Of a DNA stretch of 64,000 nucleotides, positions 3,001 through 44,827 are shown piece by piece (positions within the stretch are counted from its first letter, which is position 1; each line of letters begins with the position of its first letter). The DNA comes from Botryllus schlosseri. Its lineage: Eukaryota. Location: the NCBI GenBank assembly GCA_051294905.1, contig CM119371.1:40984001-41048000 (forward strand), read 5' to 3'. The notes beneath the pieces are model-generated. The model was not told the DNA's origin. It searched no databases and saw only the letters and a program-made list of their open reading frames with translations. The translations under genes were made by a program, and so were the position numbers.

Positions 3001-6000
3001 CCAAACTACTTCGTTAGGACAACCAGTTCCAACATGAAATGAAGATAAGTGGTACAATTTTAAGATAATGTGGGAACACACGTAATTTGCATACGTTAAG
3101 TCAAAATTAAGTTTGTTGAGGTCGAAAAAAGTCAAGATTTTGATTTTTAGGTTTAAAGTTGCCCTACTAATGTAATATGTTGTCTATGACAATGTCAAAT
3201 ATTCGGTCGAGTACAATCGATATTTCCATTTCAGACTATCCTCACGGACATATGGACATGGAATTCAACAACGTTCGCGTTCCGAAAGAGAACTTAATAC
3301 TCGGCGAAGGCCGAGGATTCGAAATAGCCCAAGGCCGCCTTGGTCCTGGCAGAATTCACCACTGCATGAGATCTATCGGTAAGAAATGAAAAGAATATGC
3401 ACGCTACTAGAAAAAGGGTGGGCGTACCAAGCAACTGTGTTTTTCCCAAAACGTTGCGATAAAAATACTGCCACTCAATTCCAAGAAAAGAGTCCTGAAA
3501 GTGAATCGTTAATTAGCAAAACCTACACTAGCACTGGAATAAGGAAGAAGTTCTTCGTTATTGATCACCCCCCATAGCCGGACTTTTACAACTAGATAAT
3601 TCCAGGTAATCTAACTGTAATGTAATTTGTGAAATGTTTCTACGCTCTAATGCAGGGTTTGCCAACTCAAAATGGGTCGCGGGCCAATGTTCAAGTTTCG
3701 TAGAGGCCGCATAATATCAATATCGAGATAAAATCGGCCACACTGTTTTTCTTCTTTTATGACCAAGTCATTGTGTTGACTGCTCAATTTCCAGTTAAAG
3801 TCTTGTTAAACCCACTTTTTATAACTCTGTTTGGTGATATCGAATGGTTCGCATTTATAATATACTAATTTTCCTCACTTTTAGCAGTTTCTGGTCGCAT
3901 TTTCAGTACCAGTACCAATAGACGAAATCCCAATAGTGTGGTTACTTTTCTATTCTTCGAAATTACGATGAAAAGTCGGCCTTGGCCGTTTGAGTCTTGA
4001 GCCGTATGACTTGGTTCGAGTCATGCGCAATGACTCGAGTCTAAGTCGAGTCAATACACAGATTGACTCGAGTCGAGACATTTCCGTATTTTGATAAAAT
4101 GACTCTTGTCAAGTCGAGTCTTCAGAAAATCTCGACTCGAATCATTACGACCCTGGCGACGGGCATTTGGTTGCCACAAAAGAAATGATGTTCTATAAAA
4201 GAAATACAAATACAACAAAAATATCATGATCATCAGTTTCATTCTTATTTTGAACTATGACCTGCGCACGATACTTGGAAACACTTATCAGCGACTAAAG
4301 AATCTATATTGGGGTTAGCTAGAAAAAAATATGATGTCGCAGGCTGTATGTTAGTAACCCCTGCTCCGATATAAGAATGAACTTTGATGGATAAGATCTG
4401 AACATTAATCAATTTCCAAACTTTGCTAATTCTGTAAATCTCATCTAATTTGGAAAAAAATGTGGTGCTATAATTCTAATTGTAATCTACTTTGGGAAAA
4501 ACTGTATAGCTATAATTCCAATTCTAATATCCTTTAAAAAAGCTTACAATTATTTTGCTTTCCAACTCTCCTGTTTTCGTTTATCAGGCCTAGCCGAACG
4601 TAGCGTTGAGTATTTTCTGCTCAGATCGAGTCAGCGAAGGGCCTTCGGCAAACGTCTAATCGAACACGTAAGTTTACCTTTGCTTTTTTTATGAAGATAA
4701 CACCAATTTATGCAATTGTCTTCAGCAAGTTAACCAGCACCATTTAGCGGAGATTCGTATCGAAATCGAACAGGCCAGACTTTTAGTGCTGAAGGCCGCC
4801 CACGTAATAGACCAGAATGGTTCGAAAGCTGCTCGGAAATTGGTTTGTATTATTTTCATTTGATGCTGGATATCCTCAATCAGTTCATATAGACCAGTGG
4901 TTCCCAACGTGGGCGATATCGACGCGTTCAAAATATGAATGAAACTGTTGACCATGTATTTTTGTTGTATTTGCATTCTTTTATTATATATCATTTCTTT
5001 CATGGGTTATAATGACTCCAGCCAAGATTTTCTGAAGACTCGACTTGACAAGAGTCGTTTTATCAAAATACGGAAATGTCTCGACTCGAGTCAATCTGTG
5101 TATTTACTTGACTTTGACTCGAGTCATTGCGCACGACTCGAGACTCAGACGGCCAAGACCGACTAAGAGCTTCAGATAGGGAAGTTTTCAGTAATTGCGT
5201 CCAAAGAAAGAGGCTAATTGCTGGCACGTTGGACATTCTACTAAAGACAAAGCTCGATGGGGTTGTATGCTGGTAGAACCCTTTCATTGGAATGCACAAT
5301 TGTCAATTACCGACTTTGAGAGCTCGCTGAGTGCTGCATTCAGTATAATGAGCTATAGGTTGAGTTTTATGTACGCCTTTGGTTAGGGTTACCATATTTT
5401 GGAATCGGGAAAGAAGGACACTTACGAAATTTTTCCCACTTCCGAGGTCTGTTGACTAAAATAATATCAACTTTCTGGCTCAGCTCCCGAAATAGCCGCC
5501 GGACCGTTACTTCAGTGCTGATTTACTGTCTCTCAGTCGAATTTTGCTCAATAACCAAAATTCTCAAAAATGAGGACTAAATCGCGAAAAGGACATTTCC
5601 ACGAGGACGTATCATGTATGGTAACCCTATAAAATGAGCTCTAGGTTCGAGTCTTATATAGCCCTACGACATTGAAACCAACCACGACTATGGCATTGTG
5701 AGAGCGTCTGCATTATTAGACTAGGTTCTCTGCTACTGCAAAGTTCCAGTTTTCTACTACTATTCAGATAACAGCACCTGTGGCCAGAACTGCTATTGAG
5801 ACCATAATATGAATGCAGGTTATCAAAGATAAAAAAACGTGACACTCCAAATATGTATCCAATCCACCCGGTGAAATTTTGAATTTATTATAAAAAGATA
5901 TTTTACCGGCTACCGCAGAAAATTTATACGCAGTTATAAAAACAATGTAACATACGCGACGTAATCACAATCCATGCACCAAAAAGTAAAAACACTGCAT

Positions 6001-9000
6001 TCAGTTTTTCAATGGAAATAAAGGGTGACTGTATTAATCATTCAGTAACAATTCGTTCATCAGATTTAGAGCTCTCGCTTTGAATTCGCATTTCTTCTGT
6101 AACGGCAACGACTTCAGGTCAGCATGCATGCTCAGCAGAAACAGCTCGTCACAGTCCGCTTTATTGGAGGGAATAGGCTGAGGCTCGGTAACAAGTTGGC
6201 TATAATCATCCTCGTTTGCAGCCCTTTTCCGTTTTTTTGCTTTTCTCGGCAACGTGAGAGTAGGACTATTATCTGTTGATCCTAGAACATTGAATTGCAT
6301 GAATTTCGGCCTCATCAAACACAAGATTTTATTTTTAACTAACCATTTGGTGAATATGATGTCGAGTTCATTGAACTTTGTGCAGTCTCCTCCCGATAAT
6401 CGTCTGCTGTAAAAACTGGAGTCAAAACAGTTTCTCCACTGGCGTCGAAGAAACCGGAATCGGTGCTGCTTGGAAGTTGTGGTTTAGATTGACCTTCACT
6501 GACGTCCAAATTCGATGTGGATCTGAATGGAGCCATTTAGGTGTAACTGCAATGTCATGAATAGAGCGATGCTTTTGACATGCCGAAATTGTAGAGTTAC
6601 GTCAAAAAATTAGAAAGTTTTTTTGGAACCAGCATTTTCTTTGTATCGTAGATGTTTGCACTGTCGGGGAACTTATCATTCAACACTTGTAGCCTATTTT
6701 ATAGGCCTTTCGTTGTAGGCGGCTCATAATCTGCTCATGATGATTCTTACACACGGGTAAATGAATCAAATAGCCTGACATGGTGCTAAGCTCAACATAC
6801 CACAATATCCTAACTGAAGCAAGACTGTGTGGACATTGGTTCTTATATCAAGAAGCGCATGATAAAAATTGTGATGCAGACAACATTATCAAAATGAAGC
6901 AACACGGTTTGTCACCAGCAGTTTACATTCAACTTGAATGTTGACAAGTCAACAACTGCTGCTGTCGAACGTTCGTTCTCCATTCTTGGCAAGCTACTTG
7001 TAAGGACAGACACTTTCTACCTGACAATGTAGGGAAGTATCTTCCGTTGCACAACAACAAATTTTATTTATTCCTACCACAATGCCCGAAGTAAATAATG
7101 GAATTCTTCATAGATCTGGATCAAAAATTTGTCTGTTTTAAGACAAAAAAGTTTTTCAGGCCAACCTACTTCATAGGGACAGACAGCTACTTATTTACAT
7201 GAGGTCCACATTTAGTCAAAATTATGTTTTTTTAAATTCCAGGAATGTCATAATTTGATTTTTTAGGTCAAAACCTTCCCCTTTTTCTGTCCTAGTAGTA
7301 AATATTCAAGGCTTCAGAGCTTACTTTCGACTTTTTGTGAACGGTCGTCGACTTTTTGTGAACGGTCGCAGGAATGACATTGTCGACAGCAAGGGCCACG
7401 TAGGTCTTCCATTTTGCTGTGCTCCTGACTCTGCCTTGATTTCTTTCTTCCTCTCTCGCCTGTATTTATCTCTGAGGTTCTCCCATGTCTTTCGGCATTT
7501 AGCCGCTAAAAATATATGATGAAACTCATGAAATTGAATAAATCAGGGAATTTACAATACCAAATTCATAGTTTCGACGCACCACAAGACTGTGATGTAA
7601 TGAAAAAAAGTATTTGAAATTAGACGCCCCTGTCCTAGGCGATGTAAAAAGGAGGTATGCACACTAAATGAAAAGTAAAAGAAAATAATATAAAAAGAGG
7701 TGGCATATGCTGGAAGGCGAGATAGATATGTCAGGTTGTGCAAGGGATGACTGTTATTGATTCAGTGGTATTTGATATCTTTTTATGTTTAGGATTAGGA
7801 TACGGAATCTTTTGACTTGAGCAGTATTGTACTGACACATAATGATAAATGCCTTACCTGAACAACCCACTAACGATGAAATTTTGATCCATGCATTTCT
7901 TTTTATGTTGAGATCCGGATAGTGGCGGTGATCCCAATCATACAAACAAGGGAATTTCTCAACAGCTAACACGAGCTTCTCTTCGTCCATTTCGCGCGCT
8001 CTCATTTCTGACCGACTTGACTGACATGTTAAGTTTGATGATCCGCTAGATTGCGCATATGTGCAAACACGACAGTCACGGTCGGTCGGGCCGGAGGCAG
8101 GAAATTCGATGATACGCTTGGTGCCGCAAATAACTTTATAATAAATAATAGTAATAACAGCCCAGCACCAGTGACAGAAAACGAACAAGTAAAAATTCTG
8201 TTGGATGTACCAGTTATAACTGACCGCGAAATCAGGAGCAACCGCCCGGATATAATCGTCAAACTAAAAAAGAAAAGAGAATGCTTATTCATTGAACTGG
8301 CTGTCCCAGCTGATCACAAGTCACAACCTACTGCAAAAAGAATCAGAAAAACTATAGAATGTAAACGTGGAATGGCAGCGACCGATTTTGCAGCTTCGTT
8401 CCGCTTCACTGAAGCTTTACTCGGACTTATTTTACGGCAGCTACAGTAGGATTTATGGCAATCCAAAAGTTGTCTTCCAGAGCTCAGAACTTACTGAATC
8501 TGGTCTTGATCGAAAGCTACTGTCGCACTGATTCCGAAAATATCAATCAAAATACGATCAGGCTCCGTACTTAGATGATAAATCACCCTCAACATCTAAA
8601 ATCTGCATTGTTCAGAACAATCGGATGAACGCAAAACAATGACCACAACAATGACCCATTGCGGCTCTTCAATTGTTCGGACAATGCCGATAATTCAGAC
8701 TTGAAGGGCGAATTCTAAGCGGCCCAGTGCCTGATCATATTTTCATTTACATTTTCGGAGTCAGTGTGACAGTAGCTTTCGATCAATACCAGATTCAGGT
8801 AATTCTGCGCTCTGGAAGACGACTTTTGGATTACCATAAATCCTACAGTAGCTGCCGTAAAATATGTCTGAGTAAAGCCTCAGTGAAGCGGAACGATGCT
8901 GCAAAATCGGTCGCTGCCATTCCACGTTTACATTCTATAGAAAAACACTCCAAATACGCAGAGCTCAAAATGGAATGTGAGAAAATGTGGCGATGCAAAA

Positions 9001-11234
9001 TAAACATTGTACCGATAGTCATTGGTGCTACAGGGGTCGTGAGCAAAAACTCGTGAGACATATCCAACAAATTCCGGGTAACGTTCGATTCGACATGATC
9101 CAAAAGATCACATTATTGGGCACTGTGCACATTCTTCGGAAGGCCTTGAATGCACCACTGGACTAAAATTACACTTGTGAATGACAGCATAATTTCTGTA
9201 ATTTCGATTCTTCATCTTCAATCATCTCTACCTCTGCTCTGTAACCCTTGCCAATTCTTCTTCTGCTGCAATTCTGTAATCTGACTTCTCCGTGTATTGC
9301 ATAAGAATAACAATTTGAATGTATTACTGAAATTTTAAAAATTTACTCCAATCTCGCCATTTTCCTTTGGGGGCAGGTTGCTCCCCGGATTATGTGTGTA
9401 TCTACCAGTTTTACTGTAAATAAAGAATATAATAATAATCGTCGGATTATATTTTCGTCTGAACAAGACACGCACAATGTACAATCCGATGTAATGAACA
9501 GATAGGAGGATGTTGAACGATCATGCAGATGCGGTCTTTTGAACTGGCATCCACCTCGGCCTAGTGCCCGATGTCACAGTTCCTTTTTCGATGTCTCTAT
9601 TCCGCGGTTCTTTCTTGCTCTTTCCATTCTTTGTGGGTGCGCTCTTTCACCGGGGAAGTGCGGTACGGCGAGTTGCCGTGCAGAGAGTCCTTAAGGCAAA
9701 AACACTATAATGAATATTTAGTGCGAATCGGCGGACCTCTGCTGTTCCTTTCCAAGCACCAATTCAGAAATGCGAGCCTTCACCTTGGAAAGTGTCACCC
9801 TATTGTTCAATCGAAACGCAGGCGTGATACCAATTGCAAATGAGTTTGTATAAGTATTGGACTGGATCCGGATTTTGACAGGATTATTTGGGTCACCGCA
9901 TTGGAGATACCCAGCCGGTTTTTTTTTCGGACTCTGAATTTACAATTACCAGCCGGGCCATGCTTGGTTCCGTTGCCGAAATTTGGGGATCCGACCATCT
10001 CTGCTACTGATCCGCCCTATTTACCTGCAACCAATGATCGACAAGGCGAGCGCATCAACACAAATCATATCTATGAGACTATAGTGTGTGTTTTGACTTC
10101 CACGGTACCCTTGATACTGTATCATGGAACACTGGTTTGAGAACCACTGTGTTAGATGTTAGACACATTAAGTGCCTTACCCCGTAGTCAACTGTGTCTT
10201 ACAACAGAATTCGCTATGGACAATGAGCATTTTATGTTTTCCAGATAGCGATGATCAAAGTCGTAGCGCCGCGGGTGATGAAAAATGCAGTCGATAAAAC
10301 TATTCAGATTCACGGAGCAGCGGGTGTATCGCAAGACTTTCCTTTCGCGCAATGGTACGTTTTATAATAATACTAATTTAATATAATAATAACTTATAGT
10401 TCTGACTATACTAATTCCATTGATGATATCATCATTTCAAAACACCACAAGACTGCAATACAATAAAAAGATAGAAAGGTGTGTCGAAACGACTTGGAGT
10501 AGTCTCTGGAAATCAGATGCCCACCTAGGCCTACGCGATGTAATAAGAGGCATTCGCAATTTGCACATTGCGCACTGGATGGAAAGAAATAAAGGCTATA
10601 TTGACTAGTGATGAGAATGAATGGTAGACCTACATGTGTCGTTAGGCGAGTTTGTTTGTCAGACCGAGATCCGGTAATCTTGATGGCTGACTAGTACTAG
10701 CAGTCAAAGTCAGAGAGCAACGGGTCTAGTCCGAGTCGTAACGTTGGGATAGTCGGAGTGTTCGCTGGTCATTGTCGAGTTCAAGTCAGTTTCAACTCAT
10801 GTTCTTGAAACTGTTGGGTGCTATCGAAGGCCTCATATTAGTGATATATAGGCTAGTCAGTCTTCTCACTCTTAACATGTTTATTCAAACGGATAAGACA
10901 GTTTGGGGCTTATTTTTCAAGTATTGGTCCTGATACAAGGGACCTCAATCATGTCATTTAAAATATCTCAAGTGTGGCGAGCGCGAGATAGCGGAGTGGT
11001 ATAATCCACAGCTGCAACACCATTGGGTTGAGTTAGTGCATTTAAGCAAAAGCTACTTGACTATAGTAAAGTCCTTCGTTATAGACCGTCTCCGATGATA
11101 ACTAGAATACGAATTTTCTTGTCAGGTTTGCTGGTGCACGCATACTACAAATTGCCGACGGTCCTGACGAGGTGCACTTGAGTATGATCGCGAAGATGGA
11201 GATTATCGAGCAAATGAGAATGGCCAAGCTGTGA
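76..11234 (+). CDS. ACAD11: Acyl-CoA dehydrogenase family member 10/11-like, 3' part (5' end lies upstream of the window)
   Basis: Phase-consistent GT-AG exons 76-183, 934-1032, 2489-2641, 3235-3378, 4588-4667, 4726-4842, 10245-10354, 11126-11234. They encode [101 protein letters not shown]. These motifs are typical of ACAD10/11; the terminal AKL favours ACAD11, but ACAD10 vs ACAD11 is not certain. Confidence 0.93.
1100..2430. repeat. Tandem ~120-bp subrepeats of a dispersed palindromic non-autonomous element family (family C)
   Basis: Unit ..TACTGGTTGGAATTGAGCCAAATTTG..AGACAACCTAACAATTTCATGG..GCCAGTAAATTTGAAAA recurs several times and is split by the MITE at 1329-1918. Related sequence at about 16500-17050, 26370-27530, 47960-48320, 53170-53280 and 58920-59220. 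Boundaries approximate. Confidence 0.75.
1329..1918. mobile_element. hAT-type MITE (family A, rich in GACTCGAGTC subrepeats)
   Basis: TIR CAGGGTTGTAA..TTACAACCCTG with a perfect 8-bp TSD GTGACCAG (1321-1328 / 1919-1926). Confidence 0.92.
5185..5760 (+). pseudogene. Heavily degraded PIF/Harbinger transposase remnant (copy 1)
   Basis: Nucleotide similarity to 12238-12560, e.g. shared AAAGAGGCTAATTGCTGGCACGTTGGACATT, CCCTTTCATTGGAA, TTTGAGAGCTCGC and ATGAGCTCTAGGTT. Interrupted by a hAT MITE at 5384-5629. Ends approximate. Confidence 0.75.
5384..5629. mobile_element. hAT-type MITE (family D, TAGGGTTACCATA ends)
   Basis: Inverted ends TAGGGTTACCATA..TATGGTAACCCTA. Same family at about 17100-17424, 18300-18560 and 19474-19884. 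Confidence 0.75.
6034..7990 (-). CDS. MADF-BESS DNA-binding protein, copy 1 (246 aa), nested antisense in the ACAD intron; Harbinger ORF2-like
   Basis: Exons 7990-7858, 7505-7325, 6522-6344, 6281-6034 (741 nt, phases 1/2/1, all GT-AG). MADF motif [36 protein letters not shown]; basic KAKKRKR; BESS-like [24 protein letters not shown] at the C-terminus. An alternative in-frame ATG lies at 8005. Confidence 0.85.
6949..7060 (+). pseudogene. hAT transposase C-terminal dimerisation-domain remnant inside MADF intron 2
   Basis: Translates [17 protein letters not shown] then, after a frameshift, [19 protein letters not shown], matching the hAT S..ERSFS motif. A more degraded paralogue lies at about 14450-14545. 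Confidence 0.65.
8162..9439 (+). mobile_element. 5'-truncated RLE-type non-LTR retrotransposon (R4/Dong-like) 3' end
   Basis: [44 protein letters not shown], then after the inserted [49 protein letters not shown]. This is the RPD..D/E restriction-like endonuclease C-terminus. (AAT)-rich sequence flanks both ends. Confidence 0.8.
8352..8940. mobile_element. Foldback MITE with ~190-bp terminal inverted repeats, inserted in the RLE coding region
   Basis: CTATAGAATGTAAACGTGGAATGGCAGCGACCG.. at 8352 is mirrored by ..CGGTCGCTGCCATTCCACGTTTACATTCTATAG ending at 8940. Superfamily not assignable. Confidence 0.85.
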
Positions 11235-11819
11235 ATTTTCTTCAATCGAAATTGATACCTTTCCATCGTTTATCTACGTTATGGTGCTACTATGCCCTTT
11301 TATCGTGATAAGTCGGTCGTTAATTAGTCCGAAATGGTTAAATGACATTTTTTGACTTGAGAATCGCCTTCGATGTTACTGCCGATACTCTTTATTCACG
11401 CTCCATCTAATTATTGTATTATTCATAAATTAATGAGCTATGCAATAACGTTCGTAATATTTCAAATTTATTATCAATGCGCGGCAAATACAATATATTC
11501 ATCCATTGATCTTTCGGTTGTGTCATCTCAGAATTGGCTAGGATTCTGAGCCAATTAACGTGCCTCATAGCCTTGGGGGTGGATACCCCTAGAATTGGGA
11601 AATCAGTGTAGGCTACATGTGCAAAGATGTCTGGACATTCTGTGGACCCCTGTCAGAGCTGTACAAAAATGACCGAGTTCAACCTCTACATCTGCCACGT
11701 GGGCACTGGTAGCAGCATATGGGCCCCTCGAAACTTTTCAGGCATCAACCCAATGAGATATAGGTGTGGCAGCTCCAGATGCTGGGAATTGCCTGGTATT
11801 GGGAATTTGGCCAATATGA

Positions 11820-13135
11820 ACAAACCCATACGCGCAGCTGAACGTTTAGGATCAACTTCAACATTTCTTGCAGCCGGAGATTCTTATCAAACTATCGGCG
11901 CATCATTTAGAATTCCTCCGCCAACCTTGGCATTGATAATGCTAGAAACCTGTTTGACTATGTCGGATATAAACTTGACCAGAATTTATGCCCGTTCCTG
12001 ACAGAGAAATGTGGAAGAAAAGAGCCGCCAAGTTTTGTGGTGTTTGCCGTTTCCAAATTGTATCTGCGCAATATATGGACAGCATATAACCATATGAGCA
12101 GTGAGCACCAGCTAGAAGCGGAAGCATGTTCGTTAACTACAAGAAATATTTCAGCACCATATTCTCATGGCAGTTGCTGATGCTGAGTTTTGGTATATTA
12201 CGGTGGATATCGGATTAAGTTTTGGAAGAGCTTCATATCGGGAAGTTTTATGTGAATGTGTCCGAGGAAAGAGGCTAATTGCTGGCACGTTGGACATTTC
12301 GCCGTCTGTTGAATTAAGTAATAATGGTCTTATTGTAATAGTTGGTGAAGAAGCTTTCCCGCGAAAGACAAAACTTGATGTGGTCGTATTCTGGGAGATC
12401 CCTTTCATTGGAACGAGTTTTGAGAGCTCGCCGAGTGGTGGAGAATTCATTCGGTATGATGAGCTCTAGGTTTAGAGTCCTGTACAGACATTTGTCATTG
12501 CAGCCTGACCACGACGATGGCATTATGAAAGCGTACACATTATTGTACAACTTTCTCCGTTACCGCAAAGATCCAGCTTAATATTCAGATGTTGAAGATC
12601 ACAACACATTTGGCCAAAACATGCTACGCCGTGTCGGCAGGCGTTCTGCCAGTGTTGTAAAAGAGTATCAAGTCAATCTCACTTTCATAGTTTTGACTCG
12701 AGTCATTTTCAATCAATCACCGAGTCCAAGTCAACGAGCAAAAGGTCGAGTATTAGTCCGAGTCATGGTATTATGACTCGAGTCCAAGTCATTGTGTTTA
12801 CTGCTCAGTTTCGAGTTGAAGTATTTTTATAACTCTGTTTCGTGATATCGAATGGTTGGCATTTATAATATACTAATTTTCCTCACTTTTAGTAGTAGTA
12901 TTTTCAAGTACCAGTACCAATAGACGAACGAAGCCATAGTGTGGTTACTTTACTATTCTTCTAAAATTCAATGAAATGTCGGTCTTGGCCGTCTAAGTCT
13001 TGCTCTGAATTCCAAGTCGAGTCAATACACAGATTGACTCGAGTCAAGTCCGTATTTTGAGAACATGACTCAAGTCGAGCCATTACAACCCTGCGTTCTG
13101 CCAATCCTGCCATTGAAGTTAGAGACACATTCGCA
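11820..13135 (+). pseudogene. PIF/Harbinger DDE transposase (HARBI1-like) pseudogene, copy 2
   Basis: Frameshifted segments AERL..FLAAGDSYQTI..FRI, EFMPVPDREMWKK, FPNCICAIYGQHI (DG>YG), SGSMFVNYKKYFS, LMAVADAE..VDIG, IVGEEAFP (GD>GE), RARRVVENSFG..SRFRVL, LYNFLR, and RRSA[MITE]NPAIEVRDTFA. Multiple frameshifts and stops; two catalytic Asp residues lost. Confidence 0.9.
12650..13093. mobile_element. hAT MITE family A inserted in the transposase 3' end
   Basis: CAGTGTTGTAA..TTACAACCCTG with 8-bp TSD CGTTCTGC (12642-12649 / 13094-13101). Confidence 0.88.
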
Positions 13136-13522
13136 GGTCATAATTATGAATGTAGACTAGGGCTGTTGAAACAACCTATTTTTTTCAAATCTTGCAGGTT
13201 TCAATACAATATCCATTGTAAAATAATATTTACTGAACTCTAAGACTTTTCGGGTGCCTCTTTTCAAGAGTTGACGGCACACCTACACACACACACATCT
13301 TGCAGGTTGCCTAAAAACAAAACACGACAAATTTGAATCCATTCCAACTGGTAAAATTTTGAATTTTTTATAAAAATATTTGATTTTTTTTTCAATTTTA
13401 CAGGCACCCCATGAAATTGACACGATGCAAAACTATACCGCACAGATATATAATCACAATCCATGCACCAAAAAGTTGATAACTGCATCCAGTTATTCGA
13501 AGGAAATAAAGGTCACACTGCA

Positions 13523-15688
13523 TTAATCATTCAGCAGCAATTCGTGCATCGCATTAACGACCGTCCTTCTGAATTCCCATTTTTTCTGTGTCGACAATGA
13601 CTTCAGGGCAGCGCTAAAGCTCAGCAGGAACATCTCGTCAGGGTCTGCGTTCTTGGCGAGAATAGGTTCTGTCACATTGTTCATAGCACCGACAAGTTGG
13701 CTGATATCATCCTCGTCTGCAACCCTTTTCCGTTTTTTTGCTTTTCCGGGCAGCGTGAAGATAGGACTGTTATCTGTTGATTCTGAAAATTGCATCGCAT
13801 GTAATTTAGGCATCATCAAACATACCGGGACCGGTGCCCGTTTATTTTTTACCAACCATTTGATAAATGTGAAGTCAAGCTCTTTGAACCTTCTCCAGTC
13901 TTCTGCTGAAAATCAGCTGCAGTGCCACTATTGAGAACAGGAGTCAGAACTGTTTCTCCGCTGGCGTCGAAGAAACCTGAATCAGTGCTGCTGAACCGTG
14001 GTGTAGATTGACCTTCACCAACGTCAAAATTCGATGTGGATCTGAATGGAGCCATTTAGGTGTAACTGCAATGTCATGAATAGGCCGATTTTTTTGGCAT
14101 GTCAAAATCATAGTGTTAGGTCAAAAAATTGATGACAAAGTCGTATCGTAGAGATGTTTGCACTGTCGGTGAACTTATCATTTGACATTTTACAGCTTGT
14201 AGCCTAGCTTACTTTATAAGCCTACCGTTATAGACGGCCCATTACCTACTCATTGTGAATCATAAACGGTCAAATTAAACAAATAGGCTGACTGAAGTAA
14301 ATAAATAGGTTGACTGAAACAAATAGGCTAACTGAAGGAAGACTGCGTGGGCAGTGGCCATTGGTTCTTATATCAAGAAGCGCATGATAAAAAATTGTGG
14401 GGACAACATTATCAGAATCAGAATTATCAGTGTACGTACAACTTCAGTATCGCTAGCCAACAACTGCTGCCGTCTTGGCAAGCTACTTGTAAAGACACTT
14501 TCTACCCGAGAATGTAGGAGTGTATCTTTTGTTACTCTACAACAGATATTAAATATGCTACCATAATGCGCGATGTAACAATTGGAATTTTTCATAGGTC
14601 CACATAGGTCGGTTTTCAAGACAAAAAAGATTTTTCAGGCCAACCTACTTCGCAAGGACAGACAGCTCCTAATTTACATACACAAGCCCAAAATTTGGTC
14701 AAAATCTTCCCACTTTTAGGTCCTAGTTGTGAATATTCAAAGATTCACAGCTTACTTTCGACTTTTTGTAAATGGTTCCAGGAATGACATTGTCGACAGC
14801 AAAGCCCACGTAGGTCTTCCATTTCGCCTTGCTCCAGACTCTGCCTCGATTTCTTTCTTCCTCTCTCGCCTGTATTTGTCTCTCAGGTTCTCCCATTTCT
14901 TACGGCACCTTGTCACTAAAAATATATCATTCAATACACCACAAGACCGCGATACAATGACAAGATGGACTTGGAGTATAGTCTTCCGGAATCAGACACC
15001 CACCTGGCCTAGGCTACGTAAATAGGAGGCATGCACACTGAATGAAAAGTAAAAAAAGATAATATAAAAGGACAGGCGACAAAATCAGGTGGCATGTGTC
15101 GGAAGGCGAGATAGAAATTTCAGGTCTTGGGAGGGCTGAGGCTGACTAGTGGCAAGTAATAATTCAGTAGAAATTGTTGGTATTTCGACTTGAATGTGGT
15201 CTGTGGACATGCTCGACGACTATATGATAGATAAACTGCATTCCCGGCATATTTGATAGAGCGATAGCGATGGTCTTTTACGTCGACCATGCAGCATTCA
15301 TTTTTGTCGCTTGCTTTTATGCTATCCTTTTTCACCACTTTCATGATATCCTTTTTATCCAATGCATCTTAATTTACATGCTGTAGGCCAAGGTGGGTGT
15401 CTACTTCATTAAAAGTCGACTCAAGTCGTTTCGGCACCCGCCTATCTCTTCATTATATCGCAATCTTGTGATGTGTTGATTTGATGAAAATTTTATAAAA
15501 TGATGATCATGAACAGTATTGCAATTGCACTGACACATACTAATAAATGCCTTACCGGGGAAGCCCATTAACCATGAGACTTTTTTCCACGCGTTTTCTC
15601 TTATGGCTGCATTTGAATAGTTGAGGTCATTCCAATCATACAAACAACGGTATTGCTTAACAGCCAATACAAGACTCTCGTCGTCCAT
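13523..15688 (-). CDS. MADF-BESS DNA-binding protein, copy 2 (245 aa); Harbinger ORF2-like
   Basis: Exons 15688-15556, 14915-14756, 14041-13857, 13782-13523 (738 nt; same intron positions and phases as copy 1; GT-AG). [47 protein letters not shown]-like DPDEMFLLSFSAALKSLSTQKKWEFR. Confidence 0.85.
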
Positions 15689-15894
15689 TTCGCGCGCTCG
15701 AATGAATGTCACTGACTGACTGACATGTTTGATGATCCGCTAGATAGCGCAAAAACGACAGTCGCGGTCGCGTTGATTCATCAAGGGAGAGAGATACGAT
15801 ATTCTTTTTCGCATGCACCATCGAGATGCTTTGACGACGGAGTTGCGATACGGCCCTGAGTTCATCAAGTCTGCGTCCCCGTTTTTTTCTCCTC

Positions 15895-16008
15895 CATGCT
15901 ATCCGTGATTGCTGCGGATACCAATTTTCGAGTCTTTGGTATAACCGGGGATCGAACCCACAACCTACCGATCGAGAAGCCGGACGCATAACCATTACAC
16001 TATCTCGC
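15895..16008 (-). mobile_element. tRNA-derived SINE head
   Basis: Minus strand reads GCGAGATAGTGTAATGGTT (A box)..GGTTCGATCCCC (B box), followed by non-tRNA ATACCAAAGACTCGAAAATTGGTATCC. No proper acceptor stem. 3' extent uncertain. Confidence 0.7.
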
Positions 16009-18120
16009 AAGGTAATGGAGCCACCCCGAAATAGCCTTCAAAGTCTGAAAATCAGCATTGTTCTAACTAAACAATCGCAACGACGCAGCACAATGACCGT
16101 AACAATTTTTATCAGTTCAATTCACCACAAAGACTGCTATACCATGCAAAGATAGGACGGCAAACGACTTAATGTGAGTAGTCTTTGAAATCAGACACCC
16201 ACCTGGGCCTATAGGCGATTTAAATAAGATACGTGCACACTGGATGGAGAGAAATAAGAGATAACATAAAACAACTTGTGATGAAAATGAGTGACGCATG
16301 TGTAGATAAGCGAGGCTCATATACGTCAGGTCGTGTTATTGTAATCTTGAGGGCTAACTGGTAGGCCTACTGGTCCAAAATCAAGTCAGGGAACAACGTA
16401 TCGAGTCCAAGTCACATTTTTGAAACTCTCGGGTCATATCAAAGGCCTTGCATTCACATTATACTCATTTTCTGGTTCCCAAATGAGCAATAGCAAGGGG
16501 ATGTTCAAAAATAACTTTTTTTCCGGATTCCATCCATTCGCACTGATTAAATTGTCAAGGTTACACTAAAACGCTGCACGTCAAGTTTCGTTCAATTCTA
16601 ACAAGAATACGCCGCCGCAGAGCCAATTTGAATTTTTGATTTATTATGAGAAATTAAAAAAAAAAATCACATTTTTCTGTCAACGCGATAAAATTGTTGA
16701 GTTGTCTTCAAAAACGATGCAAAACAAATTTGACTCAATTCCGACCCGTAGAGGCGGAGTTCTTTATAATTTTTCATAATAAATTAAAAATTAATCATAA
16801 CCAGTGGTTTTCATCCGCTAATGGCATATTCTACTCTGTACAAGCCAGACTCGGATAAAATTTACAAATTACATTCGTCAGAGGTAGCGCGTGAGCACTG
16901 TGCAGTAGGGCTGTTCAAAAATAACTTTATTTCCGGATTCCAGCCATTCACTGATTAAATTGTCAGGTTACCACAACAAAGCCTGCATACCAAATTCGGT
17001 TCAATTCTAACAAGTCTAAGCTTCCGCAGAGCCAATTAATTTTTATAATTTATTACATAAATTTTGAAAAAAAATTACAAATTTTTGAAGAATTCTCAAA
17101 AATCGGTGAATTTTTCCCACTTTGTGATCGGTTGACTAAAAAAATCAACTTTTCGCTCAGAGCTCAAAATAACCTTTTCTTCTCCACTTTTCTAGGTGGT
17201 TGACTAAAAAAAGGTCAACTTTCCACTCCGAAATACCCGCCGGAGCTTCACTTCTGTGCTAATTTACGGCATATCACTCGCATTTTGCTCTAAATGTGAC
17301 CTAAATTTTCAAAAAAAGAGGACAAAATCTCAAAAAAGAGGACAAAAGTGCGTCATCCGAGGACACTTTCAAAGAAGTCAAAAAAGAGGACAAATCTTCT
17401 TAAAAGAGGACGTATGGTAACCCTACCGATAATGCAATAAGTATTCTCGCTTCGACGAACTTACGCGTAAGCTTCACCCTCCCTCGCTGCGCATACATGT
17501 GCATAGACAAACAGTCACTAAAATTTGACGTATGTAAGCAAGTAGTGGGGAATCTCGGACGACTGGGGCCGCGCGCCGCACTATCATGTAAAACGGAAAA
17601 CTGTCCGCGGGTCGGACAAAATCCCTTCGCGGACCGGATCCGGCCCGCGGGCCGTATATTGTTCGCCCCTGTACTAAACCCTATGAATTGATATCTTGGT
17701 GAATTTGGGGTACCGGGCTTATCGAACGCCTTGAAATCTTAATTGAGAATCGCACCGTGTGTTGCTTGATCAGAGATAAGCAGACGGTGGCGCCTGTATG
17801 ACAAATCCACATTGTCTTCGTCATTATTGGCGAGAAATGGCTTTGAAGCTACATTGCTATCGTTAAAATAGATTCATTAAATGCGATGCATTCCTTGTAT
17901 ACGTGAATGAATGGGCGAATAATGTATCGATTCAGCAATCAGGCCCGCCAAGTTCTTAGTTTTCCTATATCCGGCCCGCCGACTGGAGAAGTTGCCCGCC
18001 CCTGGATTAGGTAGTGCGTTTAAGCAAACCTTACTTAATTACCTCGAAATAGTAAAAGTCCTTCGTTATTTAGACCGTCTCTGATAATAAGTAGAGTAGG
18101 CTTACGAATATAATTGTCAG

Positions 18121-18235
18121 GTTTGCTGGTGCACGCATAGCCAATTCCAAATCGCCGACAGCCCGGACGAGGTACACTTGAGTATGATCGCGAAGCTGAA
18201 ATATTGTCGAGCAAATCAGAATGGCCAAGCTGTGA
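18121..18235 (+). pseudogene. Duplicated, frameshifted copy of the last ACAD coding exon (the following 3' UTR is also duplicated, to about 18800)
   Basis: Aligns to 11126-11234 including the TGTCAG acceptor and the terminal ATGGCCAAGCTGTGA. Carries +5 and +1 nt insertions, and the shifted frame hits TGA before the frame is restored. Confidence 0.9.
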
Positions 18236-19473
18236 ATTTTCTTCGATCGAAATTGATACCTTAATTCTATCGTTTATCTATATAGGTTATGATGTTAGTT
18301 GGTTAGCGCCCAAAATACTGTTTTTTGCTTCACTTTATCAGGTCGTTGACTAAAAATAAGGTCAGCTTTATTATTTCAGTTCCCGGAATACCCGTCTGAG
18401 CGTTCGTTCAGTGCTATATGGTGCCTCGGGGTAGAGATTTGCTCCGTGTTTAACCAAAATTCTCAAAAAAGAGGGCCTTTAGGGGTCCTCGGAGGACATT
18501 TTCAAAAACCCGAAAACGGAGGACAAATCCTCCTAAAGGAGGACGTATATGGTAACCCTATAGCTACTAAATATGCCTTTTTATCGTGATAAGTCGGTCG
18601 GTAATTCGTCCGAAATGGTAAAATGACTTAGGGAATCGCGTTCAATGTTACTACCGCCATTGTTTATTTACGCTCTAATTCTTGTATTATTCATAAATTT
18701 AGCAATGCAATGCAATAACGTTCGTAATATTTTAAATTTATTATTAATGCGCGGCAGATATTAATATCCATTGATTCTTCGTGTAGGCTAATCTTGGAAT
18801 TGGCTATATAGGGTACGAGATAAGATGAGCAACGAGCATATCATTTGTAGAACTCGGTTTGTCTGCCTTGGCGACTTGTATTCTATCCCTTGTATGCCTA
18901 CCATAGGTCTTATAACTGCATAGTGCATATGCTTCAGAAAGTTGCGATTCCATTACTTTCGATTTCGACACGGAGGTTTCACTTTTGTATTAGTGAGGTT
19001 GTGCATTTGGAAGTTTGTCAAATAGTGGTCGTAGTGAGGGTGAGGGTAAAAATTAGTTAGGGTAAAAATTGTTGAGGATTGGCGTTCAGAAATTCACCGG
19101 TACGGGTGACGCATATACGGAGACCCCGTTGTTTTGCACATCAATAAATTTGCCGAGATGGGGTGATAAACTTCCTAGCGCGCAGTAGCCTATAATCATC
19201 CGAATTCGTCGAATATGTTGGCTATTAACATTTGGTTGTTATCATAATCAGCGGTTTTCAATTTCTTCCGCTAATAGCATACTATGGTACAATTGTACAT
19301 TGCACAATGTACAATCGTACAATAGTCGGATAAAATTTACAAATTACATTTGTCAGAGGTAGCGGGTGAGGACTGAGCAGTGAGCAGCCTATGCTACGAC
19401 CCTACGACGCAATGTATATCTGAATTTCACGCCTTTAAATAGTCTGGCACAAGTATGAGAATAGAATATATGT

Positions 19474-21372: not shown

Positions 21373-24300
21373 ATGGATTCCTTTATGGGAAACAGACCGA
21401 TTCGTCTGTCTGCGTTGACAAATTTCTCTCAACTGTAAGTTTTGTTACTGGTAAATTTTCTATTGATCGTGATATTGATTACCTATGGCTATACAGTAAG
21501 CTAACTAGCTATCAAGACAGTGTCTTGACCCCTTAAGTATGCGTTTATGACTTTGAATGCTCATATAATTCTTCAAATTTTAACTGCCTGTTCAATGTTC
21601 AAGTTTTGAAGTAAGGCCTATGGGCTATGGTTTTGTTTTAAAAGGCGTATGATTGACTGAAAAGTGTTACTTTTGGATCACACAGCCAGCATATTTCATA
21701 GTCCTTCTTTTTCTGATTGTGTTCTGGACTATTGAGTGTATTGATTTTTGTGGGCATACCTTTAATTGAAAAAAAGTAGGTCCCATGTCTTCCACCTGTA
21801 CTTGATTGTCAAGGGATTTAAATCATACCTTGAGTCTAGATTGGATTTATTGGAGATTTACAACAACCAATTTCAGCATCACTCCATAAAGGAATTGAAC
21901 CCCTCTAATGATTTGCTTGTTACACTGCTGTCCTATGAAAAATCAATAGTTTTGATGCATATCCAGATGATTTTATGCATTCAGACTTAGCCTACACTGC
22001 TGAACATAATGAAATTGAGGATAGTGTGCCATACTTAGTTTGATTTTGAATTTGAAAATGCAAATTTTGTACTAAACCTCGTATTTTCCTTGACTGTTGC
22101 ATTTTTTCAGCACTGCATCGACAAAGAATCATTTGAAAAATGTCTACACTTGTTTGATGATGTCTATGTTCAGCGCGGCGGCTGGAGCATGGCTGAATTT
22201 GAATATGGCTTTCGGACAGGTATGCACCGGTATTGTCAACGGGCATATTGCCAGAAAGTAGGCCTAATGAGCATATTTCTGTAAGATTGTTGATTTGGCA
22301 GACTTAATCATAAATACTCGCAGTCATTTTAGTTTTGTGTATGCTTTGATTGGTAACTATTACTTCGATTAAATATACAATAAATGATATATATTAACAT
22401 GAACCTGAATATTTTTGACTCACAGACGTCAGAGGTAATTGTCAACAACTAGTAGAGAATTGAAAAGAACATTGTATATCAACAATCGTACCAGCAAACA
22501 TCACATCACCGTCATGAAAATTCCAATAATCGAGACTAACAAGATGGCTCAAGCTCAATGTAGACCAACTATATATTTTTTTTCATTAGGCCTATATACG
22601 TACTCCTGGTGGCAATAAATAGGTTAGCTTAGTTTGATCAAAGTCGACTCCAACGAAAGAGTGAGAGGAATCGAGTTGTGAAAATTAAGTGTTTCGGTTC
22701 CAAGAGGCCATGATGGAATTGATTAGGAATGATTTACAATTTTAGTCAAATTCCCAACGTCCAGAGACACCAAGCACTATAAATCTAATATTTAGGCCTT
22801 CTGGGGAACGACATTCTGCGTGACCATATTCATTGAAATTTTCTGAATGCAAGTGCAGAGGCATAATGTGGTCAGAAATCTGGTTGATCCAGTCAAGGAA
22901 AACAGTGATGTATTTTACAACACCCAAAGGCTACGATTCCTCAATAATTTAATAAGATGTAGGTATTTTAGATGATGTAGGCCTACAATCTATATTTATA
23001 TTCTACTATAAATGTTGAGATGATTTGTTGCCTTTGCGCTTTCATTGAACTGTATGTGACAAAGTAACAGATTGTCTCTATCCTGTGTCAACTTCAATAC
23101 TTTCAAGATGTTATGTCAAATTAGCGGTAGCTTCGATGTAACGTTTTGGTTTCTCTGTAACCTAGTCTCATCCTGTTTCCTGGTTTTGTCTTGATCGTGG
23201 GTTGTGTAACAGGTAATGTTCTAGATTTCGGATTTACAAATTGTTAGCACTAGTGGTTTAAAATACGATTTAATCACAATGATACACCTTGGTCCATGCA
23301 CAGAAAATGTGTTTTCTAATTTACTTGACCTCAAAATGGAGCCTACTGAATAATTCTTGTCTGTTGACAAATAATGCTGAAAGCATTTTTGTATCCTTTT
23401 TGCTATGTTTGTAGCCTATATCTGTTAGTTGAAATTCCTCTCCCTCTCACTGGTCTAAAGATACCTATAAACCTATCTATTAAGGTCTCACACAGTAAAG
23501 TATTAGAAGAGCTTCTGAGAGGTACAGAACTTCAACATACAATTGAATAATATATTCATATTGAAATGAACTCGATTATTTTCGGCTGACACTCGTCAGG
23601 GGTGAGGGTGATCAACATCAACTGGTAGAGAATTGGGAATAAAGATTGTATGTCAAAATATTTAATGAGGCGATTGTTGAGAAACGATGTTCTTTTGAAA
23701 TCTCTACTAGTTGCTGACGATTCACTACTGAAAAGTGTCAGCTGGAAATTTTCGGGTTTCTTTCTATAAGAATATATTCTTTCATACAGTATTAAAATAA
23801 CCAATTACCGTAGTGATATTCGGGGTTAGTGAATATCTTGAATTTACAACTAACTTCATATCGGATTTTAAAGACTCTTTTAAAGCATTTCAATAGCACA
23901 AACTAATGCCCAAAAGCTCACTTGTGCAGAATAAGATAATATAGCAGATTATCCACCTATAATGAAAATTGTGTTGAAAATATCACGTCACGTTTTTAAG
24001 ATAACAAAAGCAAGGTAGACAAGGACTGTTGATCCCATGTTTCGCAAATAGGACAAATCCTACATCTTTACTGATTGCAGTCCTTCAATCTCAGCAGATG
24101 AGCCATTTTTTACAGTTGAATGATGTATTTATATTCATCATCAAAAGATTCTCAAACTGACTGTAATTAGGGCCTCGCCATAAAAACACTAGGTACCGAC
24201 CACACATGTAGAATGTAGATGCATATTCAACTGCACGTCACTATCGATATAACCTATCGAATGTAGGGGCCATGGATTTACGGAATTGACTATTGCAACT

Positions 24301-35569: not shown

Positions 35570-36774
35570 AGTCCCGAAAATTGTATACTATAATACTAGC
35601 TACTATCTGTTATATTAGGAGAATAGCCTTCCATTCTGACTTAATGATCGTCTGATAATTACTATAACTCTCTATGACAAAGCTGGATCACCCCTGTTTT
35701 TAAAATACGATCGTAAGACACGAAAGAATTTCCTACAGTATAACCAAAATTACAACTGATTCCGCAAAGGAATGTGTTGAACACGGCCAAGATATCAGCC
35801 ACCCCGCTCTATTCTCAGCTCGGTGGATGACTCCGAGATTCTTGTCTGAAATACAGCCGGGAGATGAATGCTTGCAACTGTCTCTAATACTCACTACCCA
35901 GCTATCTGTGCGATTTCATGGATTTAAATCATTGTACTGTATTCGCGATAAGATAAGTTATCTTGCCGCAGTCGCGACGTGACGAGGCTACTGTGATGTC
36001 TTTAGGTTTCGATTTCCAGTTACGGCGTCAAATGATAGTGGCATTCTATTATATCTGTGCACAAGAACAAACAATAATAGTAAAGACGATACAAAACATA
36101 GTGAATCGGGACTTATTGTGGTTGTCTCTTTCGTATCATAAGGGAGCTCTTGATATGGATGGTTGCCCGACGTTTGATCATGCGACATAATGAAAACAAC
36201 GTCTTCAGTTGACGGGCTGACGATGCATATGCCTTCAAGACTACTGGATCACGACCTAGCATATCGATCTCACCTTCCGCCACATGCCACTTTATTTTGC
36301 CGCTTGCCTTTTATATTTTCAGTTTACTTTTCATTCGGCGTGCTTGCCTCTTTTTTACATCGCCTATATTCGGAAACTAGAAAATTTTCAGCTTTTCCAA
36401 ATCAGATTAGAATTAGAATTATAGCTACATAGTTTTTTTCGAAATTAGACTAAAATTAGAACTATATACCCACAGAATTTTTTTTTGGCAAATTGGATTA
36501 GAATTACTGAATTTGCGAATTGGACATTGAATGGAATTTATATTCTCATAAGGACGAGAATAATAAATGACTGTACTATAGCGTATGGCACATTTCGCAC
36601 TATACAGTTTGAATAGCATTTTCAAGAAACCAGTAATTACGTTAGACTTAAGGGGACTAGCAACCCAAAAAAAAAAACAATTTTCGACTTTTTTTTTCTG
36701 GTAGGAAATATTACCATTGTAAATGGTAAAATAAAATCTGCTGTCACATGACAGCTATATGACAGCTATGTGAC

Positions 36775-44394: not shown

Positions 44395-44536
44395 ATGTTA
44401 ACTAGACGCACACCACAGGGACAGCTTTCTCGATGTAAATTAGTGACACTGGGGGAATCGGCAGTTGGAAAAAGTAGTTTGATAGTAAGATTTGTGCAAG
44501 GACAATTCAATGATTATTTAGCACCGACCATAGGAG
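44395..44536 (+). CDS. RAB5: Duplicated alternative first coding exon of Rab5 (exon 1a)
   Basis: ATG 44395, [47 protein letters not shown]+G, donor GTGGGA at the same phase-1 position as the canonical exon. Acceptor TTTTCAG|AATAT (exon from 44376) parallels TTTCTAG|AATAT (46173). Confidence 0.75.
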
Positions 44537-44827
44537 GTGGGATGTTTTCAATTTATATACTTTCTTGATAATATCATTTCAATAGTAATGCATGTTCAAT
44601 TGTTCATAAGAGTTGTAGCCAGACTTCACTTGGTCAGTAGTAACGAATGGCACAGCCGCTTTATGGCACACTTGATTGTGTATTAGACTGTGATTTGCTT
44701 TAATGGACTATAGTATGCCAGCTGTGTAGATTTATATATTTGAAGATGCTCGCAGCACGAGCAGTGTGGCAAAAAAGTATTTTTCTATACTGCAACTAGA
44801 ATCCCATATGACTCTTTTCTGCTTTAA

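Follow-up and report, generated by a model that had tools for sequence, protein, structure and literature searches.

A probable young domestication of a Harbinger MADF-BESS gene, likely copied together with its host locus, in Botryllus schlosseri

The vertebrate host genes NAIF1 and MSANTD1-4 arose from the second, Myb DNA-binding gene of Harbinger transposons (PMC9392472), and such Myb-only domestications are already published, the kind of event being well described. Like the two Botryllus schlosseri genes analysed here, they come from the second Harbinger gene and are expressed, and MSANTD1-4 have no transposase partner; they are under purifying selection, of which there are signs between the two B. 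schlosseri copies but not in the listed variants of copy A. However, their age is 430-500 million years, and they are under strong constraint and have orthologues across species (PMC9392472), whereas the B. schlosseri genes are weakly constrained and still adjoin their broken cognate transposase. NAIF1, furthermore, has HARBI1 as its partner (PMC9392472), of which our window holds no intact counterpart. BESS is not mentioned in the available text of that article. In insects, PIF elements gave rise to the co-domesticated pairs DPLG7-DPM7, APLG1-APM1, APLG2-APM2 and LPLG2-LPM2; there, as here, a MADF gene and the transposase gene belonging to it lie side by side where the element inserted, without terminal repeats, but both genes were kept, whereas only the MADF-BESS gene was kept in the window (PMC9710019). 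According to the available sections of that paper, the survey began from transposase matches, with MADF-only cases outside its target, and a domesticated PIF gene is recognised by an intact coding region, the lack of terminal repeats and target duplication, purifying selection, and synteny and exon structure preserved across species (PMC9710019). The window genes have intact coding regions, and neither terminal repeats nor a target duplication were found around them.

Two further systems resemble the locus. ADF-1L of the miiuy croaker is likewise a lineage-level MADF gene assigned to Harbinger, without a working transposase, that acts as a regulator; its function has been tested (KAT2B recruitment, 7SL), whereas the regulatory role of the window genes is predicted, and its origin was taken from flanking sequence, the evidence of origin being stronger for the window genes (PMC11893794). 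The Drosophila MADF-BESS family (Adf-1, Dip3, Stonewall, CP60 and Clump), whose members act as activators or repressors or assist transposon silencing, shows the same N-terminal MADF domain, long linker and C-terminal BESS motif and a duplication-driven expansion (PMC10573801, PMC13404825). No link to a transposase remnant is described for it in the available parts of these papers, and the likeness seen with the window genes is one of architecture. One other survey excluded MADF genes for having no transposase domain, as its available text states (PMC10027918), and no comparable sea squirt case was found in the literature searched.

We analysed a window of 64,000 nucleotides of the B. schlosseri genome (GCA_051294905.1, contig CM119371.1, positions 40,984,001 to 41,048,000), which contains two minus-strand MADF-BESS genes. 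Copy A (6034..7990; exons 7990-7858, 7505-7325, 6522-6344 and 6281-6034; 246 aa) lies antisense inside an intron of an ACAD gene, and copy B (13523..15688; exons 15688-15556, 14915-14756, 14041-13857 and 13782-13523; 245 aa) lies downstream of the 3' end of the same gene. As the initial annotation had reported, both genes retain four exons and open reading frames, with GT..AG borders in all six introns, and their exons 1-4 differ in length by multiples of three (0, 21, 6 and 12 nt). In exon 3, the 6 nt result from two gaps, of 9 nt and 3 nt, that partly offset each other, and a perfect, in-frame 21-nt tandem duplication was indeed seen at 7327..7368 in exon 2 of copy A. The MADF profile PF10545 matched exons 1 and 2 with 25.9 and 37.3 bits in copy A and 30.5 and 37.8 bits in copy B, and the BESS profile PF02944 scored 35.9 and 27.4 bits, respectively (Atlas 0.92), above the curated Pfam cut-offs of 22 and 21 in both copies. 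With MADF at the N-terminus and BESS at the C-terminus, both copies have the domain layout of a MADF-BESS protein. A word-index protein search, which is a weak type of search, returned no homologues of exons 1 and 2 of copy B.

Each gene stands tail-to-tail with a plus-strand Harbinger transposase remnant, and the damage first ascribed to these transposases (frameshifts, lost catalytic Asp residues and MITE insertions) was borne out. Remnant A (5165..5800) consists of the 3' part only and carries a 60-nt deletion, frameshifts, a stop and a MITE with 13-nt inverted ends (5384..5629), while remnant B (11810..13150), the N-terminus of which was not recognised, has at least five frameshifts and a tail split by a hAT-type MITE with an 8-nt target duplication (12650..13093). 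Their longest stop-free stretches are 73 aa and 129 aa, respectively, and the MADF-BESS frames remain open, in agreement with the claim that the transposase alone was lost. The residues that we take to be catalytic, by general knowledge of DDE transposases, are changed in remnant B from Asp to Tyr at the first position and from Asp to Glu at the second, with the Glu kept; in remnant A the first-Asp region is missing and the 60-nt deletion covers the second Asp. The motifs concerned recur among the 21 long relatives, being seen in 20 and 18 of them. Neither remnant preserves an open frame for a transposase in which D, D and E are all intact, and neither is an intact transposase-derived partner gene of the kind found in co-domesticated pairs.

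The proposed Harbinger origin was supported by the relatives of the remnants. Remnant B matched the reference protein P0006 (tblastn E 1.7e-25, across at least five frameshifts) and locus L009 (tblastn E 4.6e-27), the frame of which reaches 108 bits with the profile PF13359; the window's own transposase piece reaches 19.2 on this profile, under the cut-off of 24.8. The reference set left out P0002-P0004, P0002 being an unrelated repeat protein, and P0001 is internally repeated. In a comparison set of 80 Harbinger loci (L001-L080), a minus-strand MADF/BESS-like partner was detected in 34, against 0 in the reversed-query control, and 13 of these 34 have the tail-to-tail, convergent layout of the window; the comparison loci also resemble the window in the approximate position at which exon 1 stops and in their C-terminal BESS. 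MADF-BESS partners are thus ordinary Harbinger cargo. The window copies differ from this set in having neither a plus-strand frame of at least 330 aa, present at 21 of the 80 loci, nor the long inverted ends and duplicated TAA that two of the loci show. Indeed, eight end-pair searches around the two copies found no Harbinger-type terminal repeat pair or TTA/TAA target duplication, although old, decayed ends could be missed. At 4895 and 10149 stand hAT-like ends in inverted orientation, between which copy A would lie; a carrier element formed by them was considered and rejected, as their flanks show no 8-nt duplication and the inner sequences differ.

The host gene is of the ACAD11 type (best PDB match ACAD11, E 4.5e-7), and the window holds its 3' part on the plus strand (4600..11540), with one exon ending at 4667 and others at 4726-4842, 10245-10354 and 11126-11234, followed by the 3' UTR; its three GT..AG joints were seen in RNA. 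Copy A is nested in the intron 4843-10244, a feature that the initial annotation had missed. The last exon and 3' UTR recur as a broken duplicate (18004..18857, plus strand) with +5 and +1 insertions and a 263-nt insert, and a composite of two different adjoining repeats in unit 1 (10396..10848) recurs in the same order at 16057..16472, marking the duplication. Collinear homology at offsets of 5.6-7.7 kb extends over the transposase, the MADF-BESS gene, the composite repeat and the ACAD exon with its UTR, and the same-order duplicated host DNA diverges by 0.13-0.47. Repeats common to both copies lie in introns 1 and 2, which agrees with the earlier remark that the MADF introns had gathered repeats; the apparent conservation of intron 2 (77-84%) was not taken as constraint, since this intron holds a repeat with a depth in the thousands and diverges like other non-coding parts. 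Furthermore, both remnants share a +1 frameshift (12366..12381, plus strand, with its counterpart near 5242-5257), where the spacer measures 22 nt in both remnants and 7 codons in every relative that has the motif (55 of 55).

Because of the collinear homology, the shared +1 frameshift and the shared intron repeats, the two copies likely go back to a single Harbinger insertion and a later tandem duplication of ~7 kb in the host, which the initial annotation had also overlooked and which most likely came after the breakage of the transposase. The statement that the host had retained only the DNA-binding partner, twice, therefore stands as to the partner kept and the transposase lost, but not as to "twice", as a single insertion was most likely duplicated along with a host exon. 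Local hopping of DNA transposons is common, and the stretch from the copy B start codon to the composite repeat cannot be aligned with its unit 1 counterpart, as might be expected if related active subfamilies had inserted twice, independently of each other, and the purifying selection dated from transposon life. However, a shared frameshift could not have been inherited from two active lineages, the intron repeats are shared, host DNA was duplicated in the same order at the divergence given above, and the transposases would then have decayed separately while the partner genes did not; this already disfavoured origin is extremely improbable.

About 100 bp above its ATG, the upstream DNA of copy A is replaced by an insertion, likewise missed at first, which an endonuclease motif leads us to liken to the endonuclease-coding terminus of a non-LTR retroelement (8090..9166, plus strand). 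This fragment gave no Pfam or PDB match and is split by a palindromic MITE (8352-8940); an empty form appears in all four RNA runs. Beyond it, no homologue of the copy B upstream DNA was found in unit 1 (best score 30; shuffled maxima 24-29), and no tRNA genes were found within the window.

Expression was assessed from raw RNA reads in four runs of four studies, and both copies proved to be expressed, as attested by spliced joints and own-strand reads. Four of the six introns were seen spliced (introns 2 and 3 of copy A, 1 and 3 of copy B), and in the stranded run X14 the signal opposite to ACAD was 51.4 vs 0.37 for copy A and 5.67 vs 0.55 for copy B, as compared with 0.19 vs 22.8 for the ACAD UTR. 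Copy A was the more highly expressed in all four runs, copy B being unread in run X16 (0.04), and the transposase B bin gave 0 to 0.5 across all runs, the longer remnant being nearly unread. Run X20 had 4-14 reads at the copy A listed sites and 0-2 at ACAD coding sites, indicating that copy A is transcribed also where ACAD is unread. In X16, 11 of 13 copy A variants occurred in all reads and two in about half, and contig depth was 30-99 for the copies, 106 for ACAD and in the thousands for repeats; the variant pattern and the depth fit one diploid locus per copy. Single or low copy number is a usual criterion of domesticated genes. A copy A length variant of +3 nt, in frame, was present in run X2.

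Active Harbinger elements are also transcribed (PMC9179366), so that expression alone is no proof of domestication. The genes might instead benefit transposons, as helpers of Harbinger copies that, although non-autonomous, remain mobile or aid relatives in trans, with the reads coming from close copies elsewhere: MADF-BESS is normal Harbinger cargo, the Myb-like protein is required for transposition (PMC9392472, citing Sinzelle 2008), and a close paralogue could supply reads at 93% likeness. We consider this very unlikely, given that terminal repeats and target duplication were not found, that a host exon was co-duplicated, that variants are those of one diploid locus at a depth near that of ACAD and unlike that of repeats, and that an immobile copy gains nothing by helping others.

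The preservation of the reading frames argues for retention by the host. Of 46 indels in the co-duplicated neighbouring DNA (2,049 aligned bases), 35 break the frame, vs none of the four indels in the coding sequences of copies A and B (12.2 expected, P 5e-6; Fisher's test, p 0.006), which also contain 0 stops vs ~6.9 expected under neutral decay. With ~12 frameshifts and ~7 stops expected and none seen, the open frames exceed chance. The codon-model dN/dS between the copies was below 1 (0.54, p 0.003) and lowest in exon 2 (0.34), three of the four exons and the BESS region not being significant alone; as dN (0.21) about equals the intron-2 divergence (0.18-0.27), the ratio rests on dS (0.39). 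Positive selection in exon 1 was unsupported (dN/dS 0.60). The constraint on amino acids is weak, at a modest 0.54 vs ~0.07 in ordinary genes (PMC9392472). Between RNA and window, copy A showed 10 non-synonymous and 3 synonymous coding variants among those listed (40 of 583), which is the neutral ratio, as against 1:5 in the ACAD control (Fisher p 0.04), and in 7 of these 10 the read allele equals the copy B residue. The X2 contigs differ from the window at 16/449 bases in copy A and 6/478 in copy B. The expectation of a dN/dS below 1 was accordingly upheld, but the constraint is modest, and the present constraint on copy A looks relaxed.

These variants and contig differences, together with a dN/dS of 0.54, the average expected if selection constrained one lineage and left the other free, would suit another history, in which the host has or had a use for only one of the copies, probably B, and the other is a transcribed passenger drifting to a pseudogene with no frameshift yet, perhaps since the insertion upstream of A. 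However, a lineage free throughout would be expected to carry ~6 frameshifts and 3 stops, of which copy A has 0, both of its known length changes (21 nt and 3 nt) are in frame, and it is the better expressed copy in every run; such a history is unlikely, though not negligible. The explanation that we favour, with some confidence, is that the two MADF-BESS genes are one copied Harbinger insertion, the DNA-binding gene of which was likely kept by the host as a predicted DNA-binding, dimerising regulator.

Judged from the domain, both copies are predicted to bind DNA sequence-specifically, and copy A has a basic stretch, KAKKRKR, starting at residue 178. In structure modelling, the pairing of BESS A with BESS B scored 0.44 (best of three controls 0.00), within a range (<=0.60) that holds only 5 of 78 solved microbial pairs, yet each of the 4 mismatches, out of 180, that passed. 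The runs agreed in no less than 97% of contacts, with partner pLDDT of at least 75. The pairing mark is reached by 51/78 solved and 2/108 mismatched pairs in the microbial calibration and by 39/65 solved and 2/126 unrelated pairs in the eukaryotic one. These models hint at a possible dimerisation of BESS A with BESS B; a structure search found no solved BESS-like structure.

In the favoured history, a Harbinger element with a MADF-BESS partner would have entered the ACAD11-type intron in antisense, the nesting being observed and the origin suggested by the relatives. The transposase, whose lesion is seen, would next have been frameshifted and the element ends lost, before ~7 kb, from inside the transposase to beyond the ACAD 3' UTR, would have been tandemly duplicated, as the collinearity suggests. 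Decay affected both copies of the transposase and the spare ACAD exon, whereas the two MADF-BESS frames remained open, and both genes are now transcribed, each from its own strand, copy A even where ACAD goes unread. The proteins may then enter the nucleus by the basic stretch, contact DNA via the conserved third MADF helix, probably at motifs like the ends of the ancestral element, and pair through BESS, and would serve as transcription or chromatin factors. It is doubtful, but conceivable, that the two proteins bind to the termini of related Harbinger elements and MITEs and disarm the partner proteins of active elements by pairing with them through BESS, the copy A variants then reflecting diversifying selection in an arms race; if true, this would give a direct view of MADF-BESS regulator families being born from Harbinger elements.

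The locus is probably a young domestication seen at an early stage, of a kind already known; what the analysis adds is the nesting of copy A in an ACAD11-type intron and the likely descent of both copies from a single insertion through a host tandem duplication. MADF genes have expanded in several animal lineages, and their transposon origin is hard to prove without a transposase domain; in this window the cognate transposase, broken, still adjoins the gene. Among the three coding sequences that were probably duplicated together in the host, the MADF-BESS gene alone is intact in both copies, providing a built-in control for early domestication.

Copies A and B, the MADF-BESS genes at 7990-6034 and 15688-13523 on the minus strand, each have four exons and encode 246 and 245 amino acids, respectively, when spliced by coordinates. 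As the initial annotation described, the splice sites are intact (GT..AG at all six introns), neither frame contains a stop, and length differences between the copies are multiples of three. The four coding gaps (21, 3, 9 and 12 nt) are all in frame, the 21-nt gap being a perfect tandem duplication. Both proteins exceed the Pfam curated cut-offs for the MADF and BESS domains, carry a basic KAKKRKR stretch, and share 66% identity over 238 aligned residues. Intron 2 ends in the same 41 nt in A (6523-6563) and B (14042-14082), which may be a signal for splicing or the trace of gene conversion.

The plus-strand Harbinger transposase remnants A and B lie tail-to-tail with these genes, and the frameshifts, lost catalytic Asp and MITE previously ascribed to them were all recovered. 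Remnant B aligned to residues 23-237 of P0006, a Harbinger relative used as reference, with at least five frameshifts; Tyr replaces the first and Glu the second of the catalytic residues, which we take to be Asp, Asp and Glu, and the final Glu is retained. Remnant A retains a 3' piece, in which 60 nt across the second Asp are deleted, and carries more frameshifts and one MITE. Furthermore, the spacer measures 22 nt in both remnants and seven codons in 55/55 relatives, these being the ones among 80 loci where the motif was found. Since this +1 frameshift is common to both remnants, the transposase had most likely been inactivated by the time A and B split.

The 80 loci are the best of 401 confirmed by scanning metagenome contigs with a transposase alignment. 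Minus-strand matches to the A/B proteins occurred at 34 of them, although many contigs stop too early for a partner to be visible, and the reversed-query control gave 0. Thirteen were tail-to-tail, in 14 the later exons preceded the transposase, 6 showed exon 1 only and 1 was otherwise arranged; Pfam confirmed MADF or BESS for 25 of 27 tested frames from 20 partner-bearing loci. A MADF-BESS gene is thus a usual cargo of Harbinger elements, and there is nothing new in the architecture as such. In L011, L017-L020, L024 and similar loci, where exon 1 lies downstream and the remaining exons upstream, the transposase seems to lie within intron 1 of an antisense MADF-BESS gene, a nested arrangement unlike the tail-to-tail one. 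Eight end-pair searches around our locus detected no Harbinger-type paired terminal repeats; a reading of A and B as selfish helper genes appears improbable.

The host ACAD11-type gene (ACAD, plus strand; best PDB match ACAD11) has its last exons at 10245-10354 and 11126-11234. An RNA joint connects 4842 to 10245, so A and remnant A lie antisense within an ACAD intron, and B sits immediately 3' of the gene. Two collinear units, at about 5165-11600 and 11600-18860, share the order of transposase, MADF-BESS gene, two different adjoining repeats, and ACAD last exon with 3' UTR, as well as repeats in introns 1 and 2 of A and B. The second last-exon copy is disrupted by +5 and +1 insertions, and non-coding divergence is 0.13-0.47, varying with segment and aligner. 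A single Harbinger insertion followed by host tandem duplication would have given A and B; two separate insertions, which would have to account for the shared host exon, are very unlikely. Later deletions have to be assumed, because neither the penultimate ACAD exon nor 9160-10245 has a recognisable counterpart in unit 2, and the transposase of unit 1 is missing its initial portion. Inverted hAT-like 13-nt ends at 4895 and 10149 enclose almost all content of the A-bearing intron, with no matching 8-nt duplication in their flanks.

If A and B arose from one insertion, their split came after it, and the duplicated neighbours can serve as a control. Across eight co-duplicated segments, either non-functional or non-coding, the strictest aligner gave 46 indels in 2,049 aligned bases, 35 of them frame-breaking, versus 0/4 in the coding sequences (expected 12.2, P 5e-6; Fisher p 0.006). 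Likewise, none of the 149 differences created a stop, against about 6.9 expected. A codon model gave dN/dS below 1 between the copies (0.54; dN 0.21, dS 0.39, p 0.003), as did counting methods (0.42-0.65); exon 2, which holds the third MADF helix, was lowest (0.34) and the only one of four significant alone. However, dN is close to intron-2 divergence (0.18-0.27), so amino-acid constraint is less well supported than frame constraint.

Both copies are expressed. Reads from X2, X14, X16 and X20, four RNA runs from four studies (4 of 24 listed), were placed on 4600-18900 at 93% likeness. Splicing was seen for A intron 3 (9 reads in X16, contigs in X2) and intron 2 (X2), and for B intron 3 (5 reads in X14, also X2) and intron 1 (X2); joints for A intron 1 and B intron 2 were absent among the 15 of 136 listed. 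Reads of A and B in X14, a stranded run, were opposite in strand to ACAD, and depth over transposase B (11755-12231) was 0-0.5 in 4/4 runs. As X20 gave 4-14 reads at each listed A site versus 0-2 on ACAD coding exons, transcription of A is not a side effect of that of ACAD. Reads of B occurred in X14 and X2, were few in X20 and were lacking in X16. Some A reads may come from a highly similar paralogue elsewhere; in X16, 11 of 13 listed A variant sites differed in every read and 2 in roughly half of them, resembling ACAD sites and not a diverged family.

Several repeats adjoin the genes. A plus-strand fragment at 8090-9166, presumably a retroelement-like endonuclease, lies head-to-head with A, 100 bp above its ATG, and is interrupted by a 590-nt palindromic MITE; its MITE-free form in 4/4 RNA runs indicates a multi-copy family. 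Directly upstream of B, a tRNA-like, presumably SINE-like repeat (15857-16010, minus strand) has high RNA depth, and ARAGORN called no tRNA there. X16 depth peaked at 9370-9846 (about 90 on each strand), where reads match partly and continue into other sequence, indicating an abundant repeat.

Elsewhere in the window, a diverged, open copy of the first coding exon of a Rab5-like gene precedes the real exon by 1.8 kb (44395-44540 and 46220-46388, plus strand; 74% DNA identity, Pfam Ras matches in both); it may serve as an alternative first exon or result from a further local duplication. The Rab5 introns hold degenerate tandem arrays of a ~42-nt unit (52930-57020), to which copies elsewhere are related, at 4409-4551, 24800-25050 and 36370-36530. 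A Bax inhibitor-1 family gene occupies 24200-28900 (plus strand; PF01027 at 27734-27982 and 28530-28871).

Variation in A runs against constraint: among the 13 coding variants listed (from 40 of 583 variants and 12 of 34 indels), 10 were non-synonymous and 3 synonymous, the neutral share, versus 1 and 5 in ACAD (Fisher p 0.04, variants listed). The read allele matched B's residue at 7 of the 10, so either the A haplotype in the window is privately changed or other haplotypes were converted by B. One X2 form of A has one additional codon with the frame kept. No variant among the 40 of 583 listed fell in the B coding sequence, and X2 contigs differed from the window at 6/478 bases in B (two contigs) and 16/449 in A. 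Copy A may be relaxed, or diversifying; that one copy is useful while its twin drifts is a less likely alternative.

A and B have intact frames, splicing, own-strand transcription and decayed partners, and retention of both by the host as predicted regulators is the reading we consider probable. The proteins would enter the nucleus, bind DNA and act in regulation. In the available text of PMC9392472 (citing Sinzelle 2008), the Harbinger Myb-like protein binds element ends and recruits the transposase, and in that of PMC10573801, BESS forms homodimers and further contacts. Folding BESS A with BESS B scored 0.44 versus 0.00 for the best control, a weak signal, since at or below 0.60 the mark was met by 5/78 solved pairs and all 4 passing mismatches (n=180); without alignments, contact agreement was 97% and pLDDT 75.

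According to the available parts of these sources, Harbinger second genes were domesticated in vertebrates (NAIF1, MSANTD1-4; PMC9392472) and one fish (PMC11893794), and in insects, unlike here, together with the transposase (PMC9710019); one Drosophila MADF-BESS protein aids transposon silencing (PMC13404825). The literature covered, mostly open-access main texts, contained no case in which the dead cognate transposase had stayed beside the gene and a host duplication provided a control, and no sea squirt domestication of this sort. This kind of event is already known, and A and B would be a further instance, with an unusually well documented origin.
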